DNA of 64,000 bases from Acidobacteriota bacterium (GTDB taxonomy: Bacteria; Acidobacteriota; Thermoanaerobaculia; UBA5066): the NCBI GenBank assembly GCA_039930645.1, contig JBDTTJ010000001.1, forward strand, positions 2,554-66,553. Direction: 5' to 3'. This document shows, piece by piece, positions 28,135 through 43,918 of the stretch. Numbering within the stretch: position 1 is the first letter of the stretch; each line of letters opens with the position of its first letter. The translations under genes and the position numbers were made by a program. The notes below the pieces were generated by a model, which saw nothing but the letters and a program-made list of their open reading frames with translations, did no database searches and was not told the DNA's origin.

Positions 28135-28956
28135 CTAGACGCCGGCGTCGCGGATGGCGGGTCCCGCGTCCATCCCTTGGCCGGTTCTCAGCGCCTGCGG
28201 AGCCGGTCGGGTCATGACCGCGGTCCAGCCACCGAAGCCGGTGTGATACCGGATCCGGTTCCGCCAGGGCCACGAGTGCCAGTGTTCCACTCGGCTTCCC
28301 AGGCCCATGAGGTCGCCTCGCTGCCACTCCTTTTCCCCGTAGCACATCACCGCGTTGCCGTCCCCCGAGCACCGCGCGCTGGCGCGGTTGACGTGCGAGA
28401 GGCCCAGGAGGTGGCCGATCTCGTGCAGCGCCGTCTCCTGAAAGTGGGCCTCCGGCTTCCCGGGTTGCGGCACGAAGACCTGGGGTGTCGTGTCGTCGGA
28501 GTCCAGCTCGCCGAGTCGTGTCTCGCGCCCCATGTCCGAACGGATTCGCTGTCCGGGCACAGGGTTGATGCAGTTGATGCCGATGCGGGCGTGCTCGGGC
28601 CGGTCGTGCAGCCAGAGCGTGAGCCCGCACTTCACGTTCGGCCGGTGGGTCGGATGGGAGTCCGGCCAGTCGAGGTCGCTGAAGCCGCGCGGCGGGACGA
28701 GCCAGAACCGGTCCCGGAAGAAGCCTCGGACGTCCCTGTAGAACGAGCGGCGGAACTCTTCCCACTGATAATCCTCCCACCGGAGGATCTGCACCACGGC
28801 GCCCGTTGCGTCCGCGTAAAGGCCGGTGGAATCCGGCTCGACGCGGTTGAGGTAGATGCTCAGGATGAAGTTGAGATCGGCGTTGCGGCCCGCGCTGCGC
28901 GCGGCCGCGTAGAGGTGCGAGTCGAGCACGGGTCCCCGGATCCATTCGCGCACCAT
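28135..28956 (-). CDS. metzincin-type zinc metallopeptidase (matrixin-like HExxHxxGxxH), no signal peptide
   Basis: 'ALHEIGHLLGLSHV' and a Met-turn candidate 'AVMCY'. The N-terminus is not hydrophobic. Confidence 0.55.
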   Translation of the reverse strand: MVREWIRGPVLDSHLYAAARSAGRNADLNFILSIYLNRVEPDSTGLYADATGAVVQILRWEDYQWEEFRRSFYRDVRGFFRDRFWLVPPRGFSDLDWPDSHPTHRPNVKCGLTLWLHDRPEHARIGINCINPVPGQRIRSDMGRETRLGELDSDDTTPQVFVPQPGKPEAHFQETALHEIGHLLGLSHVNRASARCSGDGNAVMCYGEKEWQRGDLMGLGSRVEHWHSWPWRNRIRYHTGFGGWTAVMTRPAPQALRTGQGMDAGPAIRDAGV

Positions 28957-30623: not shown

Positions 30624-32123
30624 ATGTCCAAACGCCCGCCGTCCGGCAACGTCGACGTGAGGCTGGGAAGCGGAACCCAGGCGTCGGGGGAGCCGCTCGA
30701 TCCCGAAATGCCGTTTCGTCTGCTCGTGCTCGGCGACTTCGGCGGCGCCGGCAGTTCCCCGCTCGCGACACTCAGACTGCATGCCATCGATCGGGACGTC
30801 CTCGAAGAGGAGCTCGAAGGTCTCCAGGCAGCGATGGACGTGCCCCTCGGCGGAGGCCAAACCGCGAAGATCACACTCCGCGATCTCGACGACTTCCACC
30901 CGGACCGCCTCCTCGAGCGCGTCGACGCCCTCACGGACTTGCGCAAGACGCGCGCGCGGCTCGAGAACCCCGCGACGTTTCGCGAGGCGGCGGGCGAGGT
31001 GCGCGGGTGGGCCGGTCCTCCTCCGGCGCGACGCGAGGGAGCCGCGGCCACGGCGCCCGCCAGTGCGGAGGACGACGTCGTGGGCGAGCTCCTCGCGGGG
31101 GCCTCGCGGCGGGCGAAGGCCGCGGATTCCGCGTTCGAGGACGAGCTGAAGGCGATCGTCCGGCCCCATCTCGCCCCGGAGGAGGACGCCGACCTCCCCC
31201 GTCTGAAGGAGGCGGTGGACGAGGCGCGCGCGGGGCTGCTCCGCGCGATCCTTCGCAGCCCCCGATTCCGGGAGCTCGAAGCCGCGTGGCGCACTCTCGA
31301 CCTGCTCGTGCGCCGGGTCGGGGACGAGTCCGTTCGCGTCTTTTTCCTCGACGTGTCGCGCGCGGCGCTCGTCGAGGACATCTCGAGTCACGAGAAGCTC
31401 TCCGGCACGGGTCTCTACCGGCGCCTGGTGACCGAGACGCTCGGCACGCCGGGTGCGGAGCCGTGGGGCGCCGTCCTCGGGCTCTACGACTTCGGTCCGA
31501 CGCTCGCCGACGCGGCGCTGCTGTCGCGCATCGCCAAGATCGCCCAGGCGGCCGGGGCTCCCTTCCTCGCGGGCGCGCGGCCGGATCTCGTCGGGTGTGC
31601 ATCCCTCGCCGGGACACCGGACCCAGACGACTGGAAGAAGTCCGAGGACGACGGAGCGATCATCTGGGAGGAGCTCCGCGTCCTGCCCGAAACCAGCTGG
31701 GTTGCGCTCGCCCTGCCGCGCCTCATGTTGCGCCTCCCGTACGGCGCGAAGACCGATCCGATCGATGCCTTTCCGTTCGAAGAAATCCCGGATGCTCCGG
31801 ACCACGACGCTTACCTCTGGGGGAATGCGGCCGTCGCGTGCGCCCTCGTCCTCACGCGTGCGTTCGAGCTGGGAGGGTGGGACCTCAAGCCCGAGACGGC
31901 GGCCGAAATCCGGGGTCTGCCCGCGCACGTCTTCAAGGACGGTCTCGAAACGCGGGTCACTCCCCCGTCGGAGGTCGTCCTGACTCTCCGAGCCGCGGAG
32001 AGGATCCTCGAGGCCGGGCTCGTTCCCGTTCTGTCGCTCAAGGGCAGCGAGAGCGTGCGCGTCGCGCGCCTCCAGCCGATCGCGAGCCCCCTCCGCGCCC
32101 TCGCCGGGAGATGGCTGCGCTGA
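30624..32123 (+). CDS. TssB-TssC fusion-like sheath paralogue (single-chain, truncated)
   Basis: The N-terminal ~150 aa align with TssB/VipA of this same cluster ('PFRLLVLGDFGG...IDRDVLEE...DDFHPDRLLERVDAL' against 'PFVVGVLGDFSG...IDRDNFDQ...TDFEPDQVVQQVEPL'). Residues ~220-470 align with the TssC core ('LPRLMLRLPYGAKTDPIDAFPFEE...YLWGNAAVACALVLTRAFELGGW...GLPAHVF' against 'LPHTLMRLPYGKDTNPVESFNFEE...YLWGNAAYSYGTRLTEAFALYNW...GLPAHTF'). Confidence 0.6.
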   Translation: MSKRPPSGNVDVRLGSGTQASGEPLDPEMPFRLLVLGDFGGAGSSPLATLRLHAIDRDVLEEELEGLQAAMDVPLGGGQTAKITLRDLDDFHPDRLLERVDALTDLRKTRARLENPATFREAAGEVRGWAGPPPARREGAAATAPASAEDDVVGELLAGASRRAKAADSAFEDELKAIVRPHLAPEEDADLPRLKEAVDEARAGLLRAILRSPRFRELEAAWRTLDLLVRRVGDESVRVFFLDVSRAALVEDISSHEKLSGTGLYRRLVTETLGTPGAEPWGAVLGLYDFGPTLADAALLSRIAKIAQAAGAPFLAGARPDLVGCASLAGTPDPDDWKKSEDDGAIIWEELRVLPETSWVALALPRLMLRLPYGAKTDPIDAFPFEEIPDAPDHDAYLWGNAAVACALVLTRAFELGGWDLKPETAAEIRGLPAHVFKDGLETRVTPPSEVVLTLRAAERILEAGLVPVLSLKGSESVRVARLQPIASPLRALAGRWLR

Positions 32124-32139: not shown

Positions 32140-32691
32140 CTAGGACCAGCCCCAGAAGTGCACGTACTTCTGCGGATTCCGGCCGGCCTTGAAGGCCTCG
32201 GGAGAGGCGAAGATGAGGGGATTGCCGATGTCGAGAGTGGAGTGCCAGTCGAACACGTAGATCCTGTCGTTCGTCACGGTGACGGCCGTGGCGGTGTGAA
32301 AGTCATGCGGCGGATCGCTCGGCGTACGGTCCACCGGGCCGGCGCCGATCAGGAACTCGTAGCCCGGCTTGCCCGCGACGCCGGTCAGGACCCGCGCGGT
32401 GGCCTCGGCGACGCCGGTGCAGGCCTGTTTGGCGCCGAGCCGCTCCCAGTGGTCCTGTGTGCGCTTTCCCGCCTCCGGAAAGCCAGCCCAGCTCTGGACG
32501 GCCTTGTCCGCGCCGGCCACACTCATCGTCCAGGCGTTCGCGAAGTTCCGGGCCGTGCCGGCATGGCCGATCGGCGAGAAGAACTTGAACGCGCTCACGC
32601 TCGGCAGCAGCACGCCGCACTGCTGATCGCCCCGCACCGCTCTGACGATTGCGTCCGCCATCGCGCGGGTGAGGCCGTATTCGTTCGCCAT
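32140..32691 (-). CDS. small hypothetical protein with ordered Cys...His...Asp candidates (possible papain-like amidase / T6SS effector-like)
   Basis: 183 aa with no signal peptide. 'GDQQCGVLLP', 'HDFHTATAVTV' and 'DRIYVFDWH' occur in an order consistent with a papain-like fold. Family not recognised. Confidence 0.3.
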   Translation of the reverse strand: MANEYGLTRAMADAIVRAVRGDQQCGVLLPSVSAFKFFSPIGHAGTARNFANAWTMSVAGADKAVQSWAGFPEAGKRTQDHWERLGAKQACTGVAEATARVLTGVAGKPGYEFLIGAGPVDRTPSDPPHDFHTATAVTVTNDRIYVFDWHSTLDIGNPLIFASPEAFKAGRNPQKYVHFWGWS

Positions 32692-32720: not shown

Positions 32721-33983
32721 CTAGTACGGCTCCCGGACGGCCGAGTGGCTCGCCGCACCCTGCGGGAAGACCTCGAGGTCCGGAGGACGGCCCTTCCAGC
32801 TCCCGTCGAGCGTGCCTCTCAAGCGCGCCTCCCAGAGAGATTCGCGGTCGAGCACGGCGAGCGCGTCGGGGGAAGGCCCTCGTGACACGTCGTGGCCGCG
32901 GCACCAGCGTGTTCCCCTCGCGGCATCCGGGCGCCGCTTCTCCCACGCCGCGCGCGCCTTCCGTTCGTCGGGCAACGGCATCTCGTCGAGGAATTCGGCC
33001 TCGAACGCGTCGGGCTCCTTTCCGTCCGCGGGCGGGACGACCGTGCGGCGGCCCGAGTCGACGTCCTCTCCGGTGATCTTCGTGAATGCCTGCCCGGCGA
33101 ACGCGGACGCCGCGAGGTCGAGTCCACCCATGGCGTGGAGGAGAGTCTCGACCCCGGCGGGATGGCCGAGGACGCCGAGGACCCGGTAGCGCTCGGGGCC
33201 GCTTCCGACGTCCTTCACCCACGCGAGGACACGCTCGAGATCTGCCGCGTCTCCCGTCGCCGCGACGAGGTACATGGAGTCCGCGTCCGCGCCGCCCGCC
33301 CCCCTCCGGCCGCGGCGGACGTCCTCGAGCGCCCAGGTCTGCCGACACCAGAGCGCCGCCTCCCGCGCGGCGGCGCGCACCCAGGCGTCCGGGTCCGAGA
33401 GGCCGCGCTCCCAGAGAGCCCGGCTCTGGGGAAGTGCGGCGAGGCTCACGACACGCCACGCCCTGCGCCGGACGACGGGCTCATCCGACGCGAGCCACGC
33501 CTCCTGGGCGCGGCTGTCGGGCGCCAGGCGGCCGCGCAGCGCGAGCGCCTCGGCGGCGGCGACGGAGCGCATCGGCGGCGCGGCGGTCACGGCTTGCTGC
33601 AGGCGCGAAAGCAGAGCATCGGCCGGGCCGTGGGCGAACGCCTCCGCCAGCCCGTCGGCGCGTGGACCCGACACGGAGGCGAAGGCCTCCCAGACGCGGT
33701 CCACGCTGCCCGGAATCCTCGAGCGCAGGAGGCCGAAGCCGGCGGCGAAGGCGGCGTCGGCGTCGTCCCCTTCCAGGCCCGGACGGACGAACGCGTCCAG
33801 CTCGTCGCCGGCGATCAAGAGACCCTGAAGATGCGCCTCGATCCGCTTTTCGAGCCGCGCGAGATCCCGGGGCATGAAACGCGGCGACCGCAGCGCCCCG
33901 CGGCGCTGCCCCCACAGGAACGCGAGCTCCTCGAAGTGCTCCTCGACGAGGTCGGGCAGGAACTTCAGCGAAGCGTCGGTCAT
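32721..33983 (-). CDS. HEAT/PBS-lyase-like repeat protein
   Basis: 420 aa. Repeated 'DxDAWVRAAAREAAL'-type HEAT units such as 'SDEPVVRRRAWRVVSL' and 'SDPDAWVRAAAREAALW'. Confidence 0.45.
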   Translation of the reverse strand: MTDASLKFLPDLVEEHFEELAFLWGQRRGALRSPRFMPRDLARLEKRIEAHLQGLLIAGDELDAFVRPGLEGDDADAAFAAGFGLLRSRIPGSVDRVWEAFASVSGPRADGLAEAFAHGPADALLSRLQQAVTAAPPMRSVAAAEALALRGRLAPDSRAQEAWLASDEPVVRRRAWRVVSLAALPQSRALWERGLSDPDAWVRAAAREAALWCRQTWALEDVRRGRRGAGGADADSMYLVAATGDAADLERVLAWVKDVGSGPERYRVLGVLGHPAGVETLLHAMGGLDLAASAFAGQAFTKITGEDVDSGRRTVVPPADGKEPDAFEAEFLDEMPLPDERKARAAWEKRRPDAARGTRWCRGHDVSRGPSPDALAVLDRESLWEARLRGTLDGSWKGRPPDLEVFPQGAASHSAVREPY

Positions 33984-34002: not shown

Positions 34003-34434
34003 TCAATTGAGGGAGACGGCCCCGCCCTTGATGCGGTTCATGCGTTTGGCGTGCGACACGAGGTCCTTCCCCTTGATCAGGATTTTCCCGTCGGCGCGAA
34101 TCGTGATCGAGCCGTCGCCGACCCGGAGGACAAGGCCTTTGCGAGCCTCGATCACGAGCGTGTCGGGAATCTCTTTCGGGGGCACGGGATCTGCGCTCGG
34201 GCCGATCCGGCCGAGGACGACGCCGTCGTCGGGGCGTCCTGCGGGCAACCAGACGAGGACCCGATCGCCGACGGCCAGCCCGACCGGGACGTCGGCGGTC
34301 TGCAGTTGGCTGCATTCCGTCACGGAATTGGTCGTGCCCTCCAGTGCGACGAGGAGTCGTCCGTCGCCACGAATCTCCATGATCCTGCCGAGCACGCCTG
34401 CGGAGACGGTGAATGTGGGCGTCTCCGTCTTCAT
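34003..34434 (-). CDS. small gp5/VgrG-tip-like protein ('mini-spike')
   Basis: 143 aa. The C-terminus 'GDGSITIRADGKILIKGKDLVSHAKRMNRIKGGAVSLN' parallels the VgrG C-terminus of this locus ('GDASITLKKDGTIQIKGKDITISG...'). The N-terminus is OB-fold-like. Confidence 0.4.
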   Translation of the reverse strand: MKTETPTFTVSAGVLGRIMEIRGDGRLLVALEGTTNSVTECSQLQTADVPVGLAVGDRVLVWLPAGRPDDGVVLGRIGPSADPVPPKEIPDTLVIEARKGLVLRVGDGSITIRADGKILIKGKDLVSHAKRMNRIKGGAVSLN

Positions 34435-35387
34435 CGTTCCTCCTTCTTGGACTCCATCCCGTCGGAGACTACGACGACCGCCGAGCTCGACGCCGAAAGC
34501 AGCGTCTTTCGATCGATGACCGTCGCGCGGAGCGTGGACGTTCCGGCCGTCTTGCCAGAGAATCGGAAGACGTTGGCATCTTCATGGGCGAGGCTGAGCC
34601 GGTCGTCCGGATCTTCGACCTTGAAGAAGACCGCGTCGGGTTGCTTCGACGCCAGTCGGACCGTGACGCGAGCCTCGTCGCCCACGTGAAGCCGTGACGG
34701 GTCCACGACCAGCTCGGCGATGCGCGGGATTTCCGAGGCGACCGTTCCAAGGTGGCTCTCCATCTGTCTCTGAAGGTCCCGCGCGAAGACGAGAAGATCG
34801 ACCCCGCTGTCATCGGCGTCGACGGAAACGCAGACGTTCGCGTAGACCCAGATGAGGGTGGGAACCTTCGGATTCACGTGGGTGATCGCCAGGTCGCCCA
34901 GACCCGTCGGCCCCGCGACATAGGGGATGTCGACCGTCATCGTTCGGCCGGCCAGCTCCACGAGGCGCTCGCGCGCCGTCCGCGATCCGGAACTCGACAC
35001 ATGAATTTCGACCGTGAAGGTGCCGCGGTCGTTCCGCGCCTTCTGGACGCGATACCCCTCGCCCGGAGCGTCGGACGTGACGAAGTCCACGAGGCGGCGC
35101 CAGCCGCCGTCTCGCAGCCCGGCGCCGGTCTCGAGGTCGGGCCATTCGAAGACGACGTCACCGCGGCCCCCCCCTCCGGACGCGAGGAGCTCGAAGCCGA
35201 TGGCCTTCTTGAAACGCTCTACCCGGCTTTCTTCTCCCATCGCCTTCCTTTCCGGAGTCAGGGCGCAGCCCGGTGCGCCGAGCAAACCGACCGCGAGGAC
35301 GAGCGCGAGCCTAGACGACGTCGCGGACTCCGGCGCACCACTGCATGTCCTCCACGCGCCCCGGCCGCAAGTTCTGGTAGGCGGCAT
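34431..35387 (-). CDS. putative lipoprotein/periplasmic protein. Candidate immunity protein
   Basis: Hydrophobic 'LALVLAVGLLGAPGCA' segment after a 26-aa basic N-region. The annotated ATG overlaps the upstream gene by 77 nt, so the start is uncertain. Confidence 0.4.
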   Translation of the reverse strand: MPPTRTCGRGAWRTCSGAPESATSSRLALVLAVGLLGAPGCALTPERKAMGEESRVERFKKAIGFELLASGGGGRGDVVFEWPDLETGAGLRDGGWRRLVDFVTSDAPGEGYRVQKARNDRGTFTVEIHVSSSGSRTARERLVELAGRTMTVDIPYVAGPTGLGDLAITHVNPKVPTLIWVYANVCVSVDADDSGVDLLVFARDLQRQMESHLGTVASEIPRIAELVVDPSRLHVGDEARVTVRLASKQPDAVFFKVEDPDDRLSLAHEDANVFRFSGKTAGTSTLRATVIDRKTLLSASSSAVVVVSDGMESKKEER

Positions 35388-36456
35388 AAAGGGGGGTCAC
35401 GTCATCGATCCCGGCATCCACGTAGTCCTGGTAGCTCTCGGTCCCCGTATGCGGGCCCGCGCAGGCGTCGAGAATCCGCGGCTCGAAGGCACCGAACGCA
35501 TGATTCCCGAACGGCGTCCGGGCAGGGTCGTCTTGCGAGACGAGCTGAGCACTCCCGTTCATCCTGAAGAATGGGTTGTTGCACGGGCCGTATCCCAGAA
35601 GGCTCGTGATGTTGATGAAGCCGTAAGGATTCAGGAAGACCCAGCTGAGCTTGGCCCCGAGCGCCCCGGAAAGGGTCTGGATCGCGGCGGCCTGGTCGTA
35701 GCAGTTCGCGAACTCCTCCTGGCGGGCCAGATAGGACTCGAGCTGAAAGGTGCCGCCGCGTTGGCCGACGCCATAGTGCGACCGGCCCCCGCCCGCGCTG
35801 TCGTAGGAGAGTCTGTGTTGCCGGTGGCAATAGGCGGCGACCCGGGCGGCCGCATCCCGAGGGTCGGTCACGTTGACGACACCCGCGCGGCTGCAGAGGA
35901 AGCGGAGCGCCTCCGCCCAGACGCCCTTCTTGTCCTGAAACACCGGAATCGGCGTGTCCAGGACCGAGAACACCTCGAGCCTCGTGATGTTCAGGGCGAA
36001 ATCGTGATTCGCCGACGGAACCGTCAGGACCCACACCATGTTTCCCCAGAACCACTGGATGCCCTCGGGGAGTTCGGGGATTCGGGCCTGCAACGTATGC
36101 GTCCCCTCGCCGAGAGGGCAGTCGCCCTCGATCGTCAGGTCCCGGAGAATGCCCGTCAACTTGCCCTGTCCGGAGATCTTCTTGCTCTCGAGAATCTGGA
36201 CCTTCACCTCGACCTTCTGGACGTTGAGGCTTCCGCCCGATTTCGAGCCACGAACCACGATCGCGGCGGGCCGCTTCGAGTATCTGTTGTCTTCGATGTC
36301 CGCTCCGTCAGCCCAATGGGGCCCCTGGACCGTGCTCTTCTGCCAGGCCACCTTCACCTCGCTCAGGAACTTCACCTCGACCACCCGGGCACGCAGGACC
36401 GGGACGTCCTCGTCCATGATCATCGAAAGTGCGACCGCTTCGCCGATGTCGGTCAT
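35311..36456 (-). CDS. hypothetical 381-aa protein immediately downstream of PAAR-like gene. Candidate T6SS cargo effector
   Basis: No signal peptide. Conserved-looking 'NPYGFINITSLLGYGPCNNPFF' and 'CYDQAAAIQTL'. Positioned PAAR-like -> this gene -> lipoprotein. Confidence 0.4.
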   Translation of the reverse strand: MTDIGEAVALSMIMDEDVPVLRARVVEVKFLSEVKVAWQKSTVQGPHWADGADIEDNRYSKRPAAIVVRGSKSGGSLNVQKVEVKVQILESKKISGQGKLTGILRDLTIEGDCPLGEGTHTLQARIPELPEGIQWFWGNMVWVLTVPSANHDFALNITRLEVFSVLDTPIPVFQDKKGVWAEALRFLCSRAGVVNVTDPRDAAARVAAYCHRQHRLSYDSAGGGRSHYGVGQRGGTFQLESYLARQEEFANCYDQAAAIQTLSGALGAKLSWVFLNPYGFINITSLLGYGPCNNPFFRMNGSAQLVSQDDPARTPFGNHAFGAFEPRILDACAGPHTGTESYQDYVDAGIDDVTPLYAAYQNLRPGRVEDMQWCAGVRDVV

Positions 36457-36468
36457 CGCGCGCTTCGC

Positions 36469-36855
36469 CTACCCGAGGATGTTCTTCTTGTTGTGGAACA
36501 GCTGGTCCCCCATGCGGCACACGTTGTTGCCTTCGAATTTCACGTCGAACGAGTAGATCAGGAACTCGCAGACGCTCATGTTGATGCTGGAAAGAATGCC
36601 GCCGGCCACTCCGGCTTCGTCGCCCGACGAGCGCGAATACTGCGCGCCCTTCACCATGGGCATCTGGCCGTCCGTCGTGACGGTGTTCGGACCCTGGGTC
36701 GTGTCCGAGGACATCCCGATGTTGGGATAAGGGATCGGGACCGGACTCGGGGCCGGTGGCGCCGGCGTCTTGCAGACATCCGGAAAGACGATCGAAACGC
36801 CGTTGCTTCCCTTGTGGACGATGCCGCGGAAGTTCGCGAAGGTGGCCTGGCCCAT
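36469..36855 (-). CDS. PAAR-like DUF4150 protein (stand-alone)
   Basis: 128 aa. 'VHKGSNGVSIVFPDVCKTPAPPAPSPVPIPYPNIG' fits the DUF4150 signature 'DVCKTP...P.PY.N'. Confidence 0.6.
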   Translation of the reverse strand: MGQATFANFRGIVHKGSNGVSIVFPDVCKTPAPPAPSPVPIPYPNIGMSSDTTQGPNTVTTDGQMPMVKGAQYSRSSGDEAGVAGGILSSINMSVCEFLIYSFDVKFEGNNVCRMGDQLFHNKKNILG

Positions 36856-36857: not shown

Positions 36858-37916
36858 TCAGTTCGCTCCCGGCGGGAGAATCGAAAGGGACGCGCGCGGT
36901 CCATCGTCCGACGAGGCGTAGACGAGCGCCGGTCCGCGCGATGCGTCGAGGCAGGCGAGACCCGCCAGGAGCGTTCCGGCGGCGGCCCCGGCGTCGCCGA
37001 AGCAGTCAGCAGGATGGTTCATCGCGCAGGACTCGTCGAAGGCGTCGCGTGAGCGCAGGAAGGCAACGCCCCACTCCTTCGCCCAGTGGCTCTCGCCGTT
37101 CATCGAGGACCAGACCGAGACGAAAGGCCGTGGCGGCGGCGCCGCCTGGACGAGGGCCTTGAGCGTTGTCGCCAGCCCCTCTCCGAGGTACGTCTCCTTG
37201 CTTCTGAGGTGACCCTGCTCGAACCCCTCCGAGGCCTCGGAGACGACCGCGAGGCTCGGGAGGCCGGCGGCGGCGGCGGCGGCGGGAGTCGCGAGCAGAA
37301 GAAAGGCCGCTCCCTCGCCCGGGATGAACCCATCGAGATGGGCGTCCGACTTCACCCGCTTCTCGAGATCGAGGGCCGCGAGCGTGGGCTGATCGACGTA
37401 CGAATCCAGTCCGCCCGCCACGGCGAACCGGGTCCTTCCCGAGCGGATCATCTCTGCGGCGCGTCCAAGCGCCATGAGGCCGCCGGCGCGGCCGGCCGCG
37501 AGGGTCGCGCTTCGGGCGAGATCGAAGAGCCCGCCGGCCTGGCCGGCCAGGAGCTTCAGAAAGCGTCCCGGGTCGGAACCCTGTCTCTCCGGACCGGGAA
37601 GGGCCAGAACCAGCGGCGGCTTCTCGGCGCCACGCCCCACGCCGCGGAGGCACTCGGCGAGAGCCCTCCCGCCGATCCGGAGGAGGCGCGCATCGCGTGC
37701 GCCGAGGCCCTCTGTCCGGCCGGCCTCGAACGACAACTCCGGAAGCCCGGCATCCGGCACCGCGGCCACCGTGAAGGGCTGGGACCGCCGGTCGAGCCAG
37801 TCGACCTGGCCGAAGCGCATCGTGGCGGCGCGAACGGAGGCGGCTGTCTCGGGCGCCGACAGGCCGACGGCCGTGACCATGCCGACCCGGGTGATGACGA
37901 TGTCTGAACCCGCCAT
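36858..37916 (-). CDS. beta-ketoacyl synthase-like (thiolase-fold) protein with degenerate active site
   Basis: 352 aa. The N-terminus 'IVITRVGMVTAVGLSAPETAASVRA' matches the KAS I/II N-terminus. The active-site Cys region reads 'TLAAGRAGGLMALGRAAEMIRSG' with no Cys, and the His motifs are replaced ('NGESHWAKE', 'CFGDAGAAAG'). Confidence 0.45.
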   Translation of the reverse strand: MAGSDIVITRVGMVTAVGLSAPETAASVRAATMRFGQVDWLDRRSQPFTVAAVPDAGLPELSFEAGRTEGLGARDARLLRIGGRALAECLRGVGRGAEKPPLVLALPGPERQGSDPGRFLKLLAGQAGGLFDLARSATLAAGRAGGLMALGRAAEMIRSGRTRFAVAGGLDSYVDQPTLAALDLEKRVKSDAHLDGFIPGEGAAFLLLATPAAAAAAGLPSLAVVSEASEGFEQGHLRSKETYLGEGLATTLKALVQAAPPPRPFVSVWSSMNGESHWAKEWGVAFLRSRDAFDESCAMNHPADCFGDAGAAAGTLLAGLACLDASRGPALVYASSDDGPRASLSILPPGAN

Positions 37917-37924: not shown

Positions 37925-38938
37925 CTACGCTGCCTTCGCGACGATCGGCTCGACCTCGCGGACCTTCAGGAGTCGTTTGTCGCAGGGGAGGGCCGCACGC
38001 CAAACGAGGTCGAGACGCGACTCGTCCGGGTGGAGAATCACCGTGTCGAGGTTGGCCGAGCGTCTCTCCTCGCCGGAATCCAGACGGAAGAGAACGTCCA
38101 CACGGCGCGCCGGGAGGGAGAACCTCAGGGCGCCCGAGGGCGTCGCGCCGGCGATTTCCACCGGCTCCCCGCCCTTCAGGTAGGAGGGGATCTGCTGGTC
38201 GGCGGGGGCGATCTGCAGGAAGCGCGTGTCGAAGTCCCTCGGGAGGTACGGCGCGCGGCTCTTCTGCCACTCCTCGTCGTACGTCCCGGCGTACTTCGGG
38301 CGCGGCTTCCAGTGGGGCGCGACGACGCCGAAGCCCGCCGGCGTGGGGCGGTCGCCGGGCGAGGAGATGAGCCGGAGAGGATCCTCGATGTTGGGCAGGG
38401 CGATCTCCTCGAGCTTTCGCCCGCTGACGCGTGAGCGAAAGCCGGTCCCGACCGGGTTGCGGTCGTCCGCTTCGGAGCGGGGCGGGTCGCCCGTCGGCGG
38501 CTCGGTGCCGCCGAACGCGCGTTCCCAGACGAGCGGCATCCTCTCGAACGGCTCGGGCCCGGAAATGCGGGTCAGGACCGTCCCCGCCCATCGTCGATCC
38601 CCGAAAACCACGACGTGCTTCTCGATCGAGGCGAGGCGAAGGGAGACCTCCGCCTGGCGCGTCGGCCGCCCTCCCGGCCCGTAGGCGTGGCCGAAGAGAA
38701 GGACGTCGGTGCCGGGCTTGGAGAGAGAGATGTCGCCGGGCTCCGCGATGCTCGTCCTGAGCGGGTCGCCGTGAAAGCGATCGGCCGTGACGATCGGCGT
38801 CTGTTTCTCGGCCTCCTCGACGCGCGGGCCGAGGGTGAACGTGCCCTTGACGATCGCGAAGAGCGTCTCGACTCCTCCGGGATCGGGCGACGAAAAGAGA
38901 GTCGCCGTGAATCGCGTGCGGTTCTTCAACTGGAGCAT
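37925..38938 (-). CDS. DUF2169-family T6SS adaptor protein
   Basis: 337 aa, immediately downstream of vgrG. 'LFAIVKGTFTL' N-terminus and 'ERAFGGTEP...NPVGTGF' are typical of DUF2169. Confidence 0.6.
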   Translation of the reverse strand: MLQLKNRTRFTATLFSSPDPGGVETLFAIVKGTFTLGPRVEEAEKQTPIVTADRFHGDPLRTSIAEPGDISLSKPGTDVLLFGHAYGPGGRPTRQAEVSLRLASIEKHVVVFGDRRWAGTVLTRISGPEPFERMPLVWERAFGGTEPPTGDPPRSEADDRNPVGTGFRSRVSGRKLEEIALPNIEDPLRLISSPGDRPTPAGFGVVAPHWKPRPKYAGTYDEEWQKSRAPYLPRDFDTRFLQIAPADQQIPSYLKGGEPVEIAGATPSGALRFSLPARRVDVLFRLDSGEERRSANLDTVILHPDESRLDLVWRAALPCDKRLLKVREVEPIVAKAA

Positions 38939-38954: not shown

Positions 38955-41120
38955 TCAGTTCTGCGAGATCTTCGACCCCTTCATCGTGATGTCCGAGGAC
39001 GCCTTGACGTTGATTTTGCCGGTCCCCGAGATCGTGATGTCCTTTCCCTTGATCTGGATCGTTCCATCCTTCTTCAACGTGATGCTCGCGTCACCCGTCT
39101 GGAACTGGATCTCGTCGCCCGCGACGAGGGAGTACTTCTTCCCGACAGTCGTTTCGGAGCTCTTTCCCACGCTCGTCGCCTGGCCCGTGCCGACGCTCGT
39201 GTTGAGCGCCCCACCCACGCTCAGCGACAGGGCCGCTCCGACGGCCCACGTGCCGTTTGCGCCGATCGTGACCGAACGGTTCGCTCCCACGGAGAGGGTC
39301 TCTGCCACCCCGACGGTCTCGGTCCGGTTGAGGGCGATCGTGATCGTCTCGTTCTGTCCGACGGTCTCGGTCCGGTTGCTTCCGATCGAGATGGTCTCGT
39401 TGTTGTCGACCGTCTCCGTCCGGTCGTGTTTGACGTGCGTCGTCTCGTCGTGGTCGATCGTCTTGGAGCGGTCGTGCCCCACCCAGTGCGTCTCGCTGTT
39501 CTCGACCTCGATGTCCTGGTTCTTCTCGGCGTGCAGGAAGACCTGTTCGTGACCCTTCTTGTCCTCGAAGCGGAACTCGTTGAAGTGCGACGGATTGCCG
39601 CCGAGACTGCTCCGGCTCTTGAGCCCGCTCTGCGTCTTGTTCGCGGGCAGGCTGTACGGCGGCATGCACTCGGCGTTGTAGACGCTGCCGATGACGATCG
39701 GCTGGTCCATGTCCCCCTCGAGGAAGTCGACCACGACCTCCTGTCCGATGCGGGGGATGTGGATCGCACCCCACTGCTTGCCGGCCCACGGCGTGGCCAC
39801 CCGGACCCAGCAGGAGCTGTCGCTGTTGCTCTTGCCTTCGCGGTCCCAGTGGAACTGCACCTTGATTCGCGAGTACTTGTCCGTGAAGATCTCCTCGCCC
39901 GGGGGCCCGACGACGACGGCGGTCTGCGTCCCCTTGACCGTCGGAATCGGCGTGACGCGCGGCGGCCGGAAGGGCAGCGCGGCCGGGAAGCACGTGAAGT
40001 GGTTCTCATAGGTGAACCCGCCGCCGCCGGCGCGCAGGTCGGCGGCGTCGGACGCGGAGTGCTCGACCTGGTAGACGACCCACGAACCGTCTCCGGCGAA
40101 ATGGCGCTCGAGGGTGAACTTGTGGCCCGAGACGATCTGGCGGCAGTTGCTCGCGGCGTGCACGAGGATGCTGGCGGCCGCCTGCTCTTCCATGCGCAGA
40201 CGGGCGGTCCGCTTGTTGTCGTCGAAGACCTTCTGGATGTCCGCGGGACGATCGCCGCCCCCAGGCTGGATTCCGTCGAAACGCTGCGCGTACGCGCCGG
40301 GGAAATCGTACAGCTCGAGTGGGGAATTGGCCGCGAGCTTGAGCTTGTGGCTCGTCTTTCCGGCGGCGACCGCCGCCAGGATCTCGTTCTCGGCGTCGAG
40401 GTGCTTGTGCGGCAGCTCGAAGCAGTGGTCCCACAGAACGACCTTCGAGGACTTGAGCTCCTGGGCCTTCTCCCAGGCATTGACGCGGTCCTCCGTGCGT
40501 GTTCCCCCGCCGACCGCCTCGAAGATCAGGCTGCTCGGGCCGGGAAGCGAGGCGTGGCTGCCCGGGGTGTTGGCGACGACCATCGTGTGGGAGCCGGCGC
40601 CGTGCTTGAAGAAGTAGTAGATGCCCTCTTCCTCCATCAGGCGGCTCGCGAACGCGAAGTCCGACTCGCGGTACTGGACGCAGTAGTCGCGGGTGGGAAA
40701 GACCCCCTGGATCTCCCAGGAGACGTCGAGACCGACGAGGACCTTCTTCAGGATGTCGGGAACCGAGATCTGCTGGAAGATGCGGCTCTGCGTCTTTCGG
40801 GCCAGCAGGAGAGCCTGCGGGACGAGGTCGAGCACGAAGCGCGTGAACGTGGCGTCCCGCGCTCCCTCCGCCACCCTCAGGCAGGTGCCGTTGAGGTAGC
40901 GCGGGCTTCCTCCGGGCATGGCGATCTCCGCCGTGATCTTCTGGCCGAGGAGAGCGTCGAACACGACCTGCTTCGCCTTGTCGTTCTCGGCGACGCACTC
41001 GAGCTGAAACTGGAAAGGCCGGGAGATCGCCTCGTGTCCCGAGAAGCCGTTCAGGATCAGGACGTCGGGGCCGAGCGGCGTCGTGACCTTGAGCCGGCGG
41101 CCGGACTGGGAGTAGGACAC
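38955..41120 (-). CDS. vgrG: type VI secretion spike protein VgrG (TssI)
   Basis: 'RRLKVTTPLGPDVLILNGFSGHEAISRPFQFQLE', 'DYCVQYRESDFAFASRLMEEEGIYYFF', gp27/gp5 domains and a C-terminal beta-helix. Confidence 0.9.
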   Translation of the reverse strand: MSYSQSGRRLKVTTPLGPDVLILNGFSGHEAISRPFQFQLECVAENDKAKQVVFDALLGQKITAEIAMPGGSPRYLNGTCLRVAEGARDATFTRFVLDLVPQALLLARKTQSRIFQQISVPDILKKVLVGLDVSWEIQGVFPTRDYCVQYRESDFAFASRLMEEEGIYYFFKHGAGSHTMVVANTPGSHASLPGPSSLIFEAVGGGTRTEDRVNAWEKAQELKSSKVVLWDHCFELPHKHLDAENEILAAVAAGKTSHKLKLAANSPLELYDFPGAYAQRFDGIQPGGGDRPADIQKVFDDNKRTARLRMEEQAAASILVHAASNCRQIVSGHKFTLERHFAGDGSWVVYQVEHSASDAADLRAGGGGFTYENHFTCFPAALPFRPPRVTPIPTVKGTQTAVVVGPPGEEIFTDKYSRIKVQFHWDREGKSNSDSSCWVRVATPWAGKQWGAIHIPRIGQEVVVDFLEGDMDQPIVIGSVYNAECMPPYSLPANKTQSGLKSRSSLGGNPSHFNEFRFEDKKGHEQVFLHAEKNQDIEVENSETHWVGHDRSKTIDHDETTHVKHDRTETVDNNETISIGSNRTETVGQNETITIALNRTETVGVAETLSVGANRSVTIGANGTWAVGAALSLSVGGALNTSVGTGQATSVGKSSETTVGKKYSLVAGDEIQFQTGDASITLKKDGTIQIKGKDITISGTGKINVKASSDITMKGSKISQN

Positions 41121-41203: not shown

Positions 41204-43918
41204 TCAGTCGAACTCGTAACGGAAGTTTCCGCCGTCGCCGACAGAGATGCGCACGCGCGACATCGTCCGGCCTTCGGCCATCCGGGCGAGGAACTCGCCC
41301 GACATCTCGGGGAGGACGGTCCGCGTCAGGATGTGGTCCACGTTGCGCGCGCCGCTCTCGACCTCGTGGCACCGCGCCACGATTGCGGCGATGACCGCCT
41401 CGTCGTAGCTGAAGGCGGCGCCGTGATTCTCCTTCAGCCGGCTGCCGATCCGGCCGAGCTGCAGCTTGATGATCTCCCGCATGACCTTGTCGGAGATCGG
41501 GTAGTAAGGAACGATGACCATTCTCCCGAGGAGGGCCGGCTTGAAGATCTTGTTCAGCTCGGGCTTGATCGCCTCGACGAGCTTGTCGGGTTCGGGAGCC
41601 GTCTCGGGGTCGGCGCAGAGCTTCATGAGCGTGTCGGTGGCGGCGTTCGACGTCAGGAGGATGACGGTGTTCTTGAAGTCGATCTCGCGTCCTTCGCCGT
41701 CCTCGAGCATCCCCTTGTCGAAGACCTGGTAGAAGAGCTCCATGACGTCGGGGTGCGCCTTCTCGACCTCGTCGAGGAGGACGACCGAGTAGGGCCGTCT
41801 CCGCACGGCCTCGGTCAGGACGCCGCCTTCGCCGTAGCCCACGTACCCCGGAGGCGAGCCCTTGAGCGACGAGACGGTGTGCGCCTCCTGGTACTCGCTC
41901 ATGTTGATCACGATGAGATTGCGCTCGCCGCCGTAGAGCGTCTCGGCGAGGGTGATGGCCGTCTCGGTCTTGCCGACGCCGCTCGGCCCGACGAGGAGGA
42001 AGACGCCGATCGGGCGGCGCGGGTCCGTGAGGTTCGCGCGCGCGGTGCGGATGCGGCTCGCGATCGCCTCGAGGGCGTGGGTCTGGCCCATGACGCGCTG
42101 CTCGAGCCGGTCCTTCAACCCGAGGACGGTTCGGATCTCGTCGGTCAGCATTTTTCCGACCGGGACCCCCGTCCAGCCGGAAATGACCTCGGCGATCGTC
42201 TGCGACGTGACGCAGGCCTGCATGAGGGGCGATTCGCCCTGCAGCTTCTCGAGCTCTTTGTTGAGGGTGTCGAGCTCGGCCTTGAGCGCCACGGGGTCCG
42301 GGGGCGGGCCGGCCGGCGTCGCGGGAGCGGCCGGAGCGGGCGCCGCGGCCGCGGCCTTGGCGCCGGGCGCCTTCTTCTTCGGCGCTGCGAGGTTCTCCAG
42401 CGTCGATCGGATGTCGCGGACGCGGGCGATGAGCTCGCGTTCCTTGTCCCACTGCGCCGTCAGGCGGGTGAGGCTCTCCTCGGCGGCAGCCCTTCGCGCC
42501 GTGAGCTCGGTGAGACGCTCCTTGTGGTCAGCGCCGGTCGCCTCCTCGCGCGAGAGGACCTCGATCTCGGCCGAGGTGTGGTCGATCGCGCGCTGCGCGT
42601 CCTCGACCGCGGGGGGCGTCGCGGCTTGCCCGATCGCGACGCGGGCGCAGGCCGTGTCGAGAACGGAGACGGACTTGTCGGGGAGCTGGCGGCCCGAGAT
42701 GTAGCGATGCGACAGACGGACGGAGTCCTCGACGGCCTCGTCGAGAATGCGCACCTTGTGGTGGTTCTCGAGAGGCTCGGTGAGGCCGCGCATCATGATG
42801 ATGGCGGTTGCCTCGGTCGGTTCCTCGACCTTGACGACCTGGAAGCGCCGCGCGAGCGCGGCGTCCTTCTCGAAGTATTTCTTGTACTCGGCCCAGGTCG
42901 TCGCGGCGATCGTCCGCAGCTCGCCCCGCGCGAGAGCCGGCTTCAGGAGGTTCGCGGCGTCGTTCTGCCCGGCCTGGCCGCCCGCCCCGATCATCGTGTG
43001 TGCCTCGTCGATGAAGACGATGATCGGCTGCGGCGAGGACTTCACTTCCTCGATGACCGACTTCAGGCGGTTCTCGAACTCGCCCTTGATTCCGGCGCCG
43101 GCCTGGAGGAGGCCGAGGTCGAGCGTTCTCACGGCGACGTTCTTCAGCGGGCCCGGGACGTCTCCCTGGGCGATGCGGAGCGCGAATCCCTCGACGACGG
43201 CCGTCTTCCCGACGCCGGCCTCTCCGGTGAGGATCGGGTTGTTCTGCCGGCGTCGCGTGAGGATGTCGATGACCTGGCGGATCTCGAAATCCCGACCGAG
43301 GATCGGGTCGATGTGGCCGGAACGCGCGCGCGCCGTCAGGTCGACCGTGTACTGGTCCAGCGCCTTCGTCCGGCCCGGGACGCCCGCCGCTGCGCCGGCC
43401 GCGTCGCCTGCCGGCGTCTCGCCGAGCAGGGCCGCGTCGCGGTCCTCGACGGAGCCCGAGACGATCTTGTCGAATTCCTTCCGGAGCGCTTCGACCGAAA
43501 TCGCCGCGAATTCCTTGGAGATCTCGCGTGCGAGACGGGCGAACTCGTCCTTCTCGAGGAGCGCGAGGAGGATGTGCGAGGAGCGTACCCGGGAGGCGCC
43601 GAAGTCGATCGAGCCGACGAGCCAGGCTTCCTCGACGAGCTTCGGGAGGCGGGGGGAGAGCGCCGGCGTGCGCGTGTTCCCGGTCTTGAGCCGGTCGAGC
43701 GACCGTACGAGGTCTTTCGCGAGCCGGGACTCGTCGATCTCGAACCGCCGGAGAATGCGGTGGAAGTCCGTGTCCGGCGTTTCACCGAGCTTGACCAGCA
43801 GGTGCTCGACGTCGACGTCGTAGTTCGTGCGCGACAAGCAGAGCCCGGCGGCCCCCTCGAGGGCGTTTCGGCAGGTGTCGTTCATTCGGCCGATGAGGGA
43901 CTTCAGGTTCGCGCTCAT
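41204..43918 (-). CDS. clpV: T6SS AAA+ ATPase ClpV (TssH)
   Basis: 904 aa. Clp N-domain, two AAA+ modules (Walker A 'GEAGVGKTAVVEG' and 'GPSGVGKTETA') and a middle coiled-coil. Confidence 0.9.
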   Translation of the reverse strand: MSANLKSLIGRMNDTCRNALEGAAGLCLSRTNYDVDVEHLLVKLGETPDTDFHRILRRFEIDESRLAKDLVRSLDRLKTGNTRTPALSPRLPKLVEEAWLVGSIDFGASRVRSSHILLALLEKDEFARLAREISKEFAAISVEALRKEFDKIVSGSVEDRDAALLGETPAGDAAGAAAGVPGRTKALDQYTVDLTARARSGHIDPILGRDFEIRQVIDILTRRRQNNPILTGEAGVGKTAVVEGFALRIAQGDVPGPLKNVAVRTLDLGLLQAGAGIKGEFENRLKSVIEEVKSSPQPIIVFIDEAHTMIGAGGQAGQNDAANLLKPALARGELRTIAATTWAEYKKYFEKDAALARRFQVVKVEEPTEATAIIMMRGLTEPLENHHKVRILDEAVEDSVRLSHRYISGRQLPDKSVSVLDTACARVAIGQAATPPAVEDAQRAIDHTSAEIEVLSREEATGADHKERLTELTARRAAAEESLTRLTAQWDKERELIARVRDIRSTLENLAAPKKKAPGAKAAAAAPAPAAPATPAGPPPDPVALKAELDTLNKELEKLQGESPLMQACVTSQTIAEVISGWTGVPVGKMLTDEIRTVLGLKDRLEQRVMGQTHALEAIASRIRTARANLTDPRRPIGVFLLVGPSGVGKTETAITLAETLYGGERNLIVINMSEYQEAHTVSSLKGSPPGYVGYGEGGVLTEAVRRRPYSVVLLDEVEKAHPDVMELFYQVFDKGMLEDGEGREIDFKNTVILLTSNAATDTLMKLCADPETAPEPDKLVEAIKPELNKIFKPALLGRMVIVPYYPISDKVMREIIKLQLGRIGSRLKENHGAAFSYDEAVIAAIVARCHEVESGARNVDHILTRTVLPEMSGEFLARMAEGRTMSRVRISVGDGGNFRYEFD

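Follow-up and report, generated by a model that had tools for sequence, protein, structure and literature searches.

A TvpD-type ketosynthase-fold protein without catalytic residues in the T6SS spike module of an Acidobacteriota bacterium: comparison with described systems and a probable co-chaperone role

The PRK06147 proteins were proposed as a fourth class of T6SS adaptor on the basis of 407 gene neighbourhoods, and their genes were found often to adjoin DUF2169 genes and at times to be fused to TIGR02270 (Liu 2020, PMC7714669). A "thiolase-like" gene forms part of the "synteny type A" arrangement of DUF2169 genes (Sachar 2025, PMC11883445), DUF2169 proteins being required for delivery of Tse7 and VP1415 (PMC11883445), and a thiolase-like gene of the P. 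aeruginosa vgrG1b island is mentioned in a passage of PMC11872809 that cites Pissaridou 2018. The P. aeruginosa protein PA0098 has been named TvpD and is predicted to be a PAAR co-chaperone; in AlphaFold models of PA0096-PA0097-PA0098-Tse7, PA0097 and PA0098 form a groove round the PAAR domain of Tse7 on the PA0096 trimer (Monlezun 2026, PMC13373197), and fusion of the PAAR-like domain to a toxin is typical of Tvp Classes I and II (PMC13373197). In the pef system of P. mirabilis, killing depends on the whole operon, and the pefDE effector-immunity pair is not enough by itself (PMC5714391). It should be noted that in the literature found no TvpD has been cleanly deleted, purified or shown to bind, and that the published role derives from gene neighbourhoods and AlphaFold models.

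Other described proteins resemble TvpD in fold or in genetic setting. TsmK (AsaB) of Acinetobacter is a T6SS accessory protein in which catalytic residues of a ketosynthase (KS) fold have been lost, and it is needed for Hcp secretion (PMC10564176; PMC13584744). It acts in membrane-complex assembly and is reported to be envelope-associated, essentially confined to Acinetobacter and linked to a lack of TssJ (PMC10564176); its homologues were defined by E<1e-20 and >60 % coverage to A1S_1301 (PMC10564176). By its published description, TsmK keeps one catalytic His and is genus-restricted, whereas in TvpD all three catalytic residues are replaced and the protein is widespread and linked to the spike and its effectors. 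The chain-length factors (CLF, KS-beta; PDB 1tqy_B and 6kxf_B) are, like TvpD, KS folds without the nucleophilic Cys and are among its best sequence and structure matches, that of ishigamide being similarly compact (360 aa), but they have Gln at the Cys position, an active KS-alpha partner and a place in PKS clusters, whereas TvpD has Arg, no KS partner and a T6SS context. The adaptors DUF4123 (Tap/Tec), DUF1795 (Eag) and DUF2169 (Tap2/TvpA) share with TvpD a location directly upstream of variable effectors and an occurrence in orphan adaptor-effector-immunity cassettes, but their folds are unrelated to that of TvpD.

The TvpD-type gene described here lies on the minus strand at positions 36858..37916 of the window (the whole stretch of 64,000 nucleotides that was analysed). 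It runs from an ATG at 37916 to a TGA at 36858-36860 and encodes a protein of 352 aa, which is assigned from profile, fold and alignment evidence as a KS-fold protein without the catalytic residues. A Shine-Dalgarno-like GGGGAGG lies ahead of the ATG, GC3 is 0.84, homologues are 350-356 aa in length, and a recorded protein from an Acidobacteriota MAG, also of 352 aa, is 100 % identical. There is no ORF in the plus-strand reading of 36858-37916. A longer reading of 577 aa from 38591 is spurious, overlapping the DUF2169 gene in another frame. The original prediction, which was made from the DNA letters and placed a 352-aa ORF here, had located a real gene with exact limits and had left its strand unstated.

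The NCBIfam profile PRK06147 (NF004798) matches the protein with an E-value of 2.4e-51 over residues 4-344 (profile positions 4-339 of 349), but the score, 175 bits, is under the curated equivalog cutoff of 342. Because other clear relatives also score below this value, among them a TvpD-TIGR02270 fusion (P0242, 130.8 bits), the cutoff appears to delimit a narrower proteobacterial equivalog and not the whole homologous family, which 367 clusters (50 % identity) match at E<=1e-30. By these profile matches the window protein belongs to the family already described under the names PRK06147, "thiolase-like" and TvpD and is a divergent PRK06147 subfamily. Pfam PF00109 matches residues 135-210 only (29.8 bits, cutoff 20.8), and the protein has no Pfam match to Ketoacyl-synt_C (PF02801). 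In searches of the PDB, the family profile matched KS, FabF and CLF chains with E-values down to 2e-8, and no ketosynthase came up at E<=10 when the profile was built from the C-terminal 95 residues alone. The AF2 model of the protein has a pLDDT of 92.3 and a pTM of 0.93, and its top 50 Foldseek matches are all FabF, FabB, KS or CLF chains (E 2e-18 to 1e-16), with query-normalised TM scores of 0.71-0.81 to FabF/KS/CLF chains. The modelled structure matches the 410-aa FabF over nearly its full length with both alpha/beta lobes present, and the model is that of a complete but trimmed beta-ketoacyl-synthase fold. The similarity to a thiolase/KS fold that had been noticed in the original prediction is therefore significant by PF00109, PRK06147, the PDB profile search and Foldseek, and the KAS I/II-like N-terminus is recovered as an alignment of 'VITRVGMVTAVG' with 'VVVTGLGMLSPVG' of FabF, which is weak alone (E 0.0014). 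The suggestion that 352 aa corresponds to half of a thiolase fold was wrong, given that both lobes are modelled.

The position of the nucleophilic Cys is occupied by Arg143, within the segment 'AAGRAGG', and aligns with the catalytic Cys in FabF and in the KS domains of PKSs and with the Gln of the actinorhodin CLF. Among 338 relatives, down to ~30 % identity, this position is Arg in 327, His in 8 and Cys in none, while the first His position is Asn in 326 and the second is Asp in 323 and Glu in 15. In the window protein 'SSMNGES' stands in place of 'NAHGTST', and 'FGDAGAAAG' in place of 'TGHLLGAAG'. Motif register and the DSSP order of strands and helices indicate that the two His positions correspond to Asn273 and Asp308. 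This mapping depends on register and DSSP order because sequence comparison detects no resemblance between the C-terminal half and any KS in the PDB: when the family profile was aligned with E. coli FabF, global hhalign misplaced that half and local hhalign covered only residues 1-42 and 146-259, so that the His positions are not mappable by sequence alone. Since Cys-His-His is replaced across the family by Arg-Asn-Asp, an acyl-enzyme cannot arise on TvpD, and the protein is no condensing enzyme. These results bear out the original view that the catalytic site is degenerate and that the HGTGT and GHxxGAAG motifs are replaced (they read 'MNGES' and 'GDAGAAAG'); neither an intact triad nor a lack of significant fold matches was found. 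The most conserved residues of the family include R143, D171, R187, E201, E233, H236, N273, E275, E281, R288, H301 and D308, which comprise the former active-site positions and a charged set. Such conservation exceeds what a passive scaffold strictly requires, so that ligand binding or some other activity is conceivable.

In the window, TvpD is part of a minus-strand run of genes for VgrG, DUF2169, TvpD, PAAR-like, effector, immunity, TvpC-like and TIGR02270 proteins, and the run closes a full T6SS cluster. The last core gene before this spike module encodes the AAA+ ATPase ClpV/TssH (41204..43918, on the minus strand like all features that follow; Pfam AAA_2 E 2e-56, AAA_lid_9 and ClpB_D2-small), and upstream of it, on the same strand, are TssG, TssF, TssC, TssA, two Hcp genes and TssM. 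The VgrG spike protein of 721 aa (38955..41120; Pfam Phage_GPD E 3e-77, Gp5_trimer_C E 3e-49, Phage_base_V E 7e-16) is encoded directly upstream of the DUF2169 gene (37925..38938). The product of the latter, TvpA, is a DUF2169 PAAR/PIPY chaperone of 337 aa, in which residues 22-314 match PF09937 positions 2-294 of 294 (E 3e-98) as the single domain; Pfam shows no pentapeptide-repeat extension, and there is no TvpB, as in Class II Tvp systems. The DUF2169 gene ends 8 nt upstream of TvpD, and 2 nt past the TvpD stop is the ATG of a gene (36469..36855) for a stand-alone PAAR-like (DUF4150/PIPY) spike-tip protein of 128 aa, in which residues 20-127 match positions 2-107 of 108 of PF13665 (Tox-PAAR-like, E 3e-39). 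The VgrG, DUF2169 and PAAR-like DUF4150 genes that had been predicted for a VgrG cargo operon flanking TvpD are thus confirmed.

The genes that follow encode a putative cargo effector of 381 aa (35311..36456), assigned from its slot and from homologues located after TvpD elsewhere, and a putative immunity protein of up to 318 aa (34431..35387), assigned from homologues that follow the effector homologue; the true start of the latter is probably downstream of its 77-nt overlap with the effector. The next gene (34003..34434), just upstream of the TIGR02270 gene, encodes a diverged TvpC (DUF6484-type OB-fold/mini-VgrG) of 143 aa. Pfam alone misses it (DUF6484, E 0.065 only), but it is recognized by phmmer through Pfam-confirmed DUF6484 ORFs (E 1e-9 and 7e-9) and by profile-profile comparison in hhalign (Prob 99.65 %, E 4e-25); by these homology searches, TvpC is present in the window but relocated relative to the type clusters. 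The conserved last member of the module is a HEAT/ARM-repeat protein of the TIGR02270 family (32721..33983, 420 aa; NCBIfam TIGR02270 E 6e-40), with a score of 137.5 bits that is under the cutoff of 206.8 and a weak match to HEAT_2.

The window TvpD resembles P. aeruginosa TvpD/PA0098, to which it is linked via the profile, in its full-length PRK06147 match, its size of ~350 aa and its KS fold without the triad, and both loci have VgrG, a DUF6484 OB-fold protein, DUF2169, a DUF4150 PAAR-like protein, an effector-immunity pair and a HEAT-repeat protein. It differs in its origin, an Acidobacteriota MAG, and in its score of 175 bits against the curated 342, and the DUF6484 gene, which in P. aeruginosa comes right after vgrG, here immediately precedes the HEAT-repeat gene. 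In addition, Tse7 is a PAAR-toxin fusion, whereas the 128-aa PAAR-like protein of the window consists wholly of PF13665 and the putative toxin is a separate ORF. Among the features of Class II Tvp and synteny type A loci, TvpC, a single-domain DUF2169 protein and the HEAT gene are present and the PAAR-toxin fusion is absent. The order of a DUF2169 gene followed by a thiolase-like gene, with a DUF6484 gene and an armadillo/HEAT-like gene, is that of synteny type A (P. mirabilis pef, V. parahaemolyticus VP1395-VP1399), but those loci are from Gammaproteobacteria and have PAAR-fused nuclease effectors, whereas the window has an unfused Cys-His-Asp candidate with a lipoprotein-like immunity partner. 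The VgrG/PAAR/effector neighbourhood, the adjacency to DUF2169 and the fusion to TIGR02270 reported in the PRK06147 survey are all reproduced here. That survey covered reference genomes, mostly of Proteobacteria (PMC7714669), and its range is widened by the clade of the window protein, which includes Acidobacteriota, Gemmatimonadota, Planctomycetota and Verrucomicrobiota and has its own conserved gene order.

The co-occurrence that the original prediction had put forward for checking was found in a survey of 79 related loci, where TvpD is linked to DUF2169, PAAR-like, VgrG, DUF6484 and TIGR02270 proteins and to known effector families. In the 45 loci with enough flank for counting, DUF2169 and PAAR-like genes are each present in 41, VgrG and TIGR02270 each in 39 and TvpC in 35. 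This nearly constant association with DUF2169 and a DUF4150 tip makes TvpD look like a co-chaperone and not an independent adaptor. A RefSeq-annotated Caballeronia plasmid has the order DUF6484 - TIGR02270 - DUF2169 - KS-like - PAAR-like - immunity. Orphan cassettes composed of TvpD, effector and immunity genes, with no VgrG, DUF2169 or PAAR-like gene within ~10 kb, were found in five loci (L031, L045, L054, L037 and L059); some of them come from MAGs in which one full module is also present, the identity between the TvpD paralogues being no more than 43-67 %. These orphan cassettes, together with natural TvpD-TIGR02270 fusions such as P0242, point to a cargo-specifying role.

The 381-aa putative effector has no sequence match in Pfam, NCBIfam or the PDB. 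Its N-terminal module of ~183 aa is common to differently tailed proteins and recurs in only two other loci, and its C-terminal domain contains invariant NCYDQ, FGNH and DACAGP motifs, which form a candidate Cys-His-Asp triad. Effector homologues directly follow TvpD in L004, L005, L033, L037 and L059, and in each of these they are followed by homologues of the immunity protein, which in the window has a lipoprotein-like, hydrophobic N-terminal signal ending ...LLGAPGC. In other loci the gene right after TvpD, or after TvpD and the PAAR-like gene, encodes an Rhs, Tle1-like or AHH effector. A domain common to all effectors downstream of TvpD was looked for and none was found. The Tle1-like, AHH and Rhs effectors have no room for a shared N-terminal module. 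TvpD sequences group by taxon and not by effector family, and where a homologous effector follows, the preceding TvpD shares only 33-35 % identity with the window TvpD, which weakens the case for a simple co-evolution of one adaptor with one effector.

We consider it probable that the window protein is a TvpD-type T6SS accessory with a dead KS fold, a non-secreted co-chaperone or adaptor of the spike tip and not a condensing enzyme. This agrees with the original suggestion of an adaptor or chaperone in place of an enzyme, a function that we infer and that is not a new idea, since it matches the published PRK06147 and TvpD proposals; the PRK06147 adaptor class was itself derived by the same neighbourhood logic. 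TvpD would most likely act in the cytoplasm, where TvpD and TvpA (DUF2169) would cradle the cone of the PAAR-like (DUF4150/PIPY) protein, at first in a pre-complex on trimeric TvpC, the mini-VgrG, and later at the tip of the cognate VgrG. The contacts envisaged are those of the published AlphaFold models of P. aeruginosa homologues, and the order of assembly and the role in specifying cargo are ones that we infer. TvpD may also contribute cargo specificity, possibly with the TIGR02270 HEAT-repeat protein, because it is always next to a variable effector and travels alone with effector-immunity pairs. A stronger form of this idea, which is tentative and rather unlikely as it stands, is that TvpD is the cargo selector of the DUF2169/PAAR-like loading module and that each paralogue recognizes the adjacent effector, with the former active site binding a peptide or ligand. 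Recognition would then probably be through the variable region of TvpD at residues 61-140, the effector would be docked, with the TIGR02270 protein, onto one shared set of VgrG, TvpA, PAAR-like protein and TvpC, and the invariant Arg/Asn/Asp/Glu/His constellation would be a functional peptide or ligand site and not structural filler.

The evidence on the former active site also bears on whether TvpD is inert. The loop that held the second His, 'HPADCFGDxGAA' (301-320), is the most conserved part of the family (mean information 3.14 bits as compared with a family mean of ~2.2), R143, E201, N273, E275 and D308 are 96-100 % conserved, and the chain-length factors (1tqy_B, 6kxf_B), which are, of the matches, the nearest KS relatives with a catalytic alteration, keep a function at their altered site. 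The polar site might therefore bind a ligand or peptide, or carry out a new chemistry on the PAAR-like protein or effector such as a loading modification, but the Cys is replaced by no nucleophile, linked genes for a cofactor or substrate are absent, published models make TvpD a surface chaperone (PMC13373197), and an Arg that faces Asp/Glu is equally explained by a buried salt-bridge network that plugs the acyl pocket and stabilizes the trimmed fold; we regard such an activity as unlikely. It is extremely improbable that TvpD is a working condensing enzyme for lipid or polyketide synthesis, similar to KAS I/II or a PKS ketosynthase, that is in the T6SS cluster by chance. The complete KS fold, the PF00109 score above the gathering value (29.8 vs 20.8 bits) and the designation of relatives as "3-oxoacyl-ACP synthase I" by public pipelines are what such an enzyme would show, but the nucleophile is Arg143, Cys is found in 0/338 relatives and both His are replaced, the C-terminal half has neither a Ketoacyl-synt_C match nor sequence similarity to a solved KS, the protein is ~60 residues shorter than FabF, and the operon, in which all neighbours are T6SS parts, has no ACP, acyltransferase or other fab/PKS gene.

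TsmK provides a precedent for the co-option of a catalytically dead KS fold by a T6SS (PMC10564176; PMC13584744), and TvpD could by analogy stabilize the membrane complex (TssM/TssL) and not act at the spike. This is highly improbable, since TsmK has the narrow range, envelope association and tie to TssJ absence described above (PMC10564176), no membrane segment is predicted in the window TvpD sequence, and the TvpD gene is between DUF2169 and PAAR-like genes and has relatives in orphan effector cassettes far from tssM/tssL. The proximity of the gene to those for the spike tip would also fit a TvpD that is itself secreted, either as a toxin or as a passenger occupying the baseplate cavity and expelled along with the spike. 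However, TvpD shows high conservation from phylum to phylum, in contrast to the variable effectors beside it, no cognate immunity gene is paired with it, Pfam and NCBIfam detect no toxin domain in it, and the adaptor classes DUF4123, DUF1795 and DUF2169 are described as loading factors and not as cargo (PMC7714669), so that secretion appears very unlikely. The role of a non-secreted co-chaperone of the spike tip is the one with which these observations are best reconciled.

The pipeline labels "3-oxoacyl-ACP synthase I" and "beta-ketoacyl synthase N-terminal-like" wrongly suggest a part in lipid metabolism, whereas a TvpD label identifies the genes beside it as those for T6SS cargo and immunity proteins, in this locus the Cys-His-Asp candidate and its lipoprotein-like partner. 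Current models of the T6SS are not overturned by the window locus. What is added is a relocated TvpC that Pfam misses, a stand-alone PAAR-like protein and, in related genomes, orphan cassettes and TvpD-TIGR02270 fusions, which draw attention to the under-studied links of TvpD with the TIGR02270 HEAT-repeat protein and with orphan effector cassettes. As this locus and its relatives show, the TvpD module has a range well beyond Proteobacteria, tolerates several gene orders and works with stand-alone PAAR-like proteins.

TvpD, the ketosynthase (KS)-like protein under study, is encoded by a 352-aa ORF on the minus strand that runs from an ATG at 37916 to a TGA at 36858-36860. The original prediction had placed it at 36858-37916, where the ORF was confirmed, but left the strand unstated; on the plus strand of this interval no ORF was found. 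A GGGGAGG run just 5' of the ATG, a GC3 of 0.84, and the lengths of the homologues (350-356 aa) support this start. The G+C content of the window is 68.6 %, and one Acidobacteriota MAG protein is 100 % identical to its TvpD. A 577-aa reading from 38591 passes through the DUF2169 gene in a different frame; it arises from taking the first start after a stop and is artefactual.

In Pfam, ketoacyl-synt (PF00109) matches TvpD above its cutoff (29.8 versus 20.8 bits) over residues 135-210 only, and there is no match to Ketoacyl-synt_C. The NCBIfam model NF004798/PRK06147 covers the full length (E 2.4e-51), although its 175 bits fall below the curated equivalog cutoff of 342 bits. Searches with the single sequence and with a family profile of 54 sequences match solved ketosynthases, FabF proteins, and chain-length factors (CLFs) through the central region only. 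An AlphaFold2 model built on this profile has a mean pLDDT of 92.3 and a pTM of 0.93, and each of its top 50 Foldseek hits in the PDB is a FabF, FabB, polyketide synthase KS, or CLF chain (E 2e-18 to 1e-16; query-normalised TM-score 0.71-0.81), which bears out the predicted KS fold. It had been proposed that the length fits half of a thiolase fold, but the alignments extend over entire 410-aa enzymes, and with the confident model they show that TvpD is a complete, trimmed two-lobed ketosynthase fold.

HMMER and hhalign align Arg143 ('AAGRAGG') with the nucleophilic Cys in KS domains and in Escherichia coli FabF ('ACTSG'), and also with the Gln of the actinorhodin CLF. No similarity to any solved KS can be detected by sequence in the C-terminal half of TvpD, and the two His positions were therefore mapped by motif register and DSSP element order. 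On this basis, the strand at 265-270 with 'SSMNGES' is the probable counterpart of 'VNAHGTST', placing Asn273 at the first His, and 'FGDAGAAAG', at the start of the helix at 310-323, probably corresponds to 'TGHLLGAAG', with Asp308 at the second. In a MAFFT alignment of 338 relatives down to ∼30 % identity, Arg occupies the Cys position in 327 and His in 8, with Cys in none; Asn stands at the first His position in 326, and at the second there is Asp in 323 and Glu in 15. The replacements foreseen at 'TLAAGRAGGL' and in both His motifs are thus present, the latter with a positional mapping that is model-based, and the recurrence of the same substitutions across the relatives indicates a trait of the family, not decay in this genome. 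The most conserved positions of the family include the Cys/His-equivalent sites (143, 273, and 308) together with E201, E275, E281, R187, R288, and H301; the most conserved stretch is the former second-His loop (residues 301-320) and the least conserved is residues 61-140.

Read along the minus strand, a full T6SS cluster (TssM, two Hcp, TssA, TssC, TssF, TssG, and ClpV) lies ahead of the spike module, which begins with VgrG (38955-41120) and a single-domain DUF2169 protein, TvpA (37925-38938; E 3e-98). TvpD is third after these and is followed by a stand-alone Tox-PAAR-like/DUF4150 protein of 128 aa (36469-36855; E 3e-39), so that every gene of the predicted VgrG-DUF2169-X-PAAR-like context is present. 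Next come a putative cargo effector of 381 aa (35311-36456), a putative immunity ORF of at most 318 aa bearing a lipoprotein-like signal (34431-35387), a 143-aa ORF (34003-34434), and a HEAT-repeat protein of the TIGR02270 family (32721-33983; E 6e-40), all on the minus strand. Pfam DUF6484 reaches only E 0.065 against the 143-aa ORF; comparison with Pfam-confirmed DUF6484 ORFs of related loci (E 1e-9) and profile-profile comparison (probability 99.65 %, E 4e-25) identify it by similarity as a diverged TvpC, the OB-fold/mini-VgrG protein.

The canonical TssC is at 47360-48844 (-), and the core cluster has tandem Hcp genes, one canonical (E 5e-42) and one diverged (E 2e-17), at 51503-51991 (-) and 52160-52642 (-). 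Convergent to the TvpD module is a 499-aa ORF (30624-32123, +), by its domains a fused sheath-like paralogue, with a T6SS_VipA (TssB) domain at residues 22-115 (E 6e-10) and a VipB/TssC N-terminal domain at residues 197-478 (E 6e-61) in the same polypeptide; the VipB_2 C-terminal domain is absent from it. Homologues occupy the equivalent relative place in six related loci (L001, L002, L003, L020, L027, and L028). Directly after the TIGR02270 gene, a 183-aa ORF without family match (32140-32691, -) has conserved counterparts only in L001 and L003, the closest two loci. Just past the sheath-like paralogue are a 519-aa class I methyltransferase with MethyTransf_Reg and PKMT winged-helix domains (29003-30562, -) and, adjoining it, a 273-aa protein (28135-28956, -) with an HEIGHLLGLSH zinc-metalloprotease motif (Matrixin E 2e-4, below cutoff).

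A scan of species-representative genomes yielded 79 TvpD loci in Acidobacteriota, Gemmatimonadota, Planctomycetota, Verrucomicrobiota, Desulfobacterota, Nitrospirota, Myxococcota, and Gammaproteobacteria. Among the 45 with at least 5.5 kb of upstream and at least 4.5 kb of downstream flank, the co-occurrence named as a check in the original prediction is found for DUF2169 and PAAR-like genes (41 each), and VgrG (39), TIGR02270 (39), and TvpC-like (35) genes are also neighbors. The main gene orders are VgrG-DUF2169-TvpD-PAAR-[effector-immunity]-TvpC-TIGR02270, as in the window (13 loci and variants), VgrG-TvpC-DUF2169-PAAR-TIGR02270-TvpD-[effector] in gammaproteobacteria (11 loci), and the Pseudomonas aeruginosa-type VgrG-TvpC-DUF2169-TvpD-PAAR-...-TIGR02270 (3 loci). 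A Caballeronia plasmid carries, in its RefSeq annotation, DUF6484, TIGR02270, DUF2169, 'beta-ketoacyl synthase N-terminal-like', PAAR-like, SMI1/KNR4, and 'type VI immunity family protein' genes. In a clade of Acidobacteriota, Gemmatimonadota, and Planctomycetota, TvpC lies just upstream of TIGR02270, not just downstream of vgrG, and includes copies such as L009:13225-13680, for which Pfam DUF6484 gives no match. In the 864-aa representative P0242, a TvpD domain (residues 1-353) and a TIGR02270 HEAT-repeat domain (residues 368-607) are naturally fused, and the start of TvpD in gammaproteobacterial loci overlaps the stop of the TIGR02270 gene (at 6490-6493 in L036, for example), which suggests that the two proteins act together.

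The family and its gene neighborhood are already published. [quoted passage not shown] From 407 neighborhoods, Liu et al. (2020) put forward PRK06147 as a fourth class of T6SS adaptor, which adjoins DUF2169, has PAAR directly downstream in 52 %, and is fused to TIGR02270 in 3.8 % (PMC7714669). The DUF2169 'synteny type A' of Sachar et al. (2025) comprises DUF6484, thiolase-like, and armadillo-like genes, and delivery of PIPY (DUF4150) effectors requires DUF2169 (PMC11883445). Monlezun et al. (2026) named PA0098 TvpD and classed the system as Class II Tvp; in their AlphaFold models, published without the HEAT-repeat protein, PA0097 and PA0098 form a groove round the Tse7 PAAR domain on the PA0096 trimer and then on VgrG1b (PMC13373197). 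A literature search turned up no experiment on any TvpD by clean deletion, purification, or binding.

The window protein is most likely a non-catalytic TvpD. The analysis shows its fold and homology, the loss of its catalytic site, and its gene linkage; the contacts and order of assembly are carried over from the published models of homologues, and by these TvpD and TvpA would chaperone the PAAR-like cone, first on the TvpC trimer, from which it would pass onto the VgrG tip to give the loaded spike. The earlier reading of an adaptor or chaperone rather than an enzyme is supported and coincides with the published proposals. An active condensing enzyme, despite the KS fold, is excluded for practical purposes by the lack of the Cys, of the His pair, and of ACP or fab genes. 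The least unlikely of the alternatives, itself of low probability, is that the highly conserved polar residues of the old active site still form a working site for binding or catalysis instead of filling the structure. TsmK of Acinetobacter is also a dead ketosynthase fold in a T6SS, acting on the membrane complex (PMC10564176), and is apparently a second, separate case; gene context and conservation pattern make both a TsmK-like role and secretion of TvpD itself unlikely.

The non-catalytic TvpD may additionally specify cargo, possibly with the HEAT-repeat protein, because, of all the module genes, it is the one invariably next to the variable effector, because it also occurs alone with effector-immunity pairs, and because the window PAAR-like protein carries no fused toxin. 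In related loci the variable slot behind TvpD, or behind TvpD and PAAR-like, is filled by genes of known effector families (Rhs, Tle1-like phospholipase, and AHH nuclease). Orphan TvpD-effector-immunity cassettes, lacking VgrG, DUF2169, and PAAR-like genes within ∼10 kb, carry Rhs (L031), Tle1-like (L045), and AHH (L054) effectors or homologues of the effector and immunity proteins of the window (L037 and L059); L042 and L057 are also of this type, and in those of these seven loci that are full-length TvpD lies at ∼10001-11100. Some MAGs have one full module and one orphan (L046 and L037, L038 and L057, L066 and L042), their TvpD paralogues being 45-67 % identical. TvpD sequences cluster by taxon, not by effector family, which counts against a simple picture of TvpD-effector co-evolution. 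In Proteus mirabilis, an effector-immunity pair alone is insufficient and the whole pef operon is needed (PMC5714391).

The putative effector has no Pfam, NCBIfam, or PDB sequence match, but NCYDQ, FGNH, and DACAGP motifs are invariant in six homologues, suggesting a Cys-His-Asp (papain/transglutaminase-like) toxin; its N-terminal ∼183 aa recur with other C termini in L069 and L039. The hydrophobic leader of the putative immunity protein ends in LLGAPGC, which suggests a lipoprotein and hence an effector acting in the periplasm, and since the called ORF overlaps that of the effector by 77 nt, its true start is probably a later codon.

The window locus is a divergent member of the TvpD family with minor variations in architecture: its TvpC is diverged and, compared with the vgrG1b island, relocated, and in contrast to the PAAR-toxin Tse7 its PAAR-like protein stands alone and its effector is unfused. 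Loci with such a relocated and diverged TvpC would count as TvpC-less in domain-based surveys.
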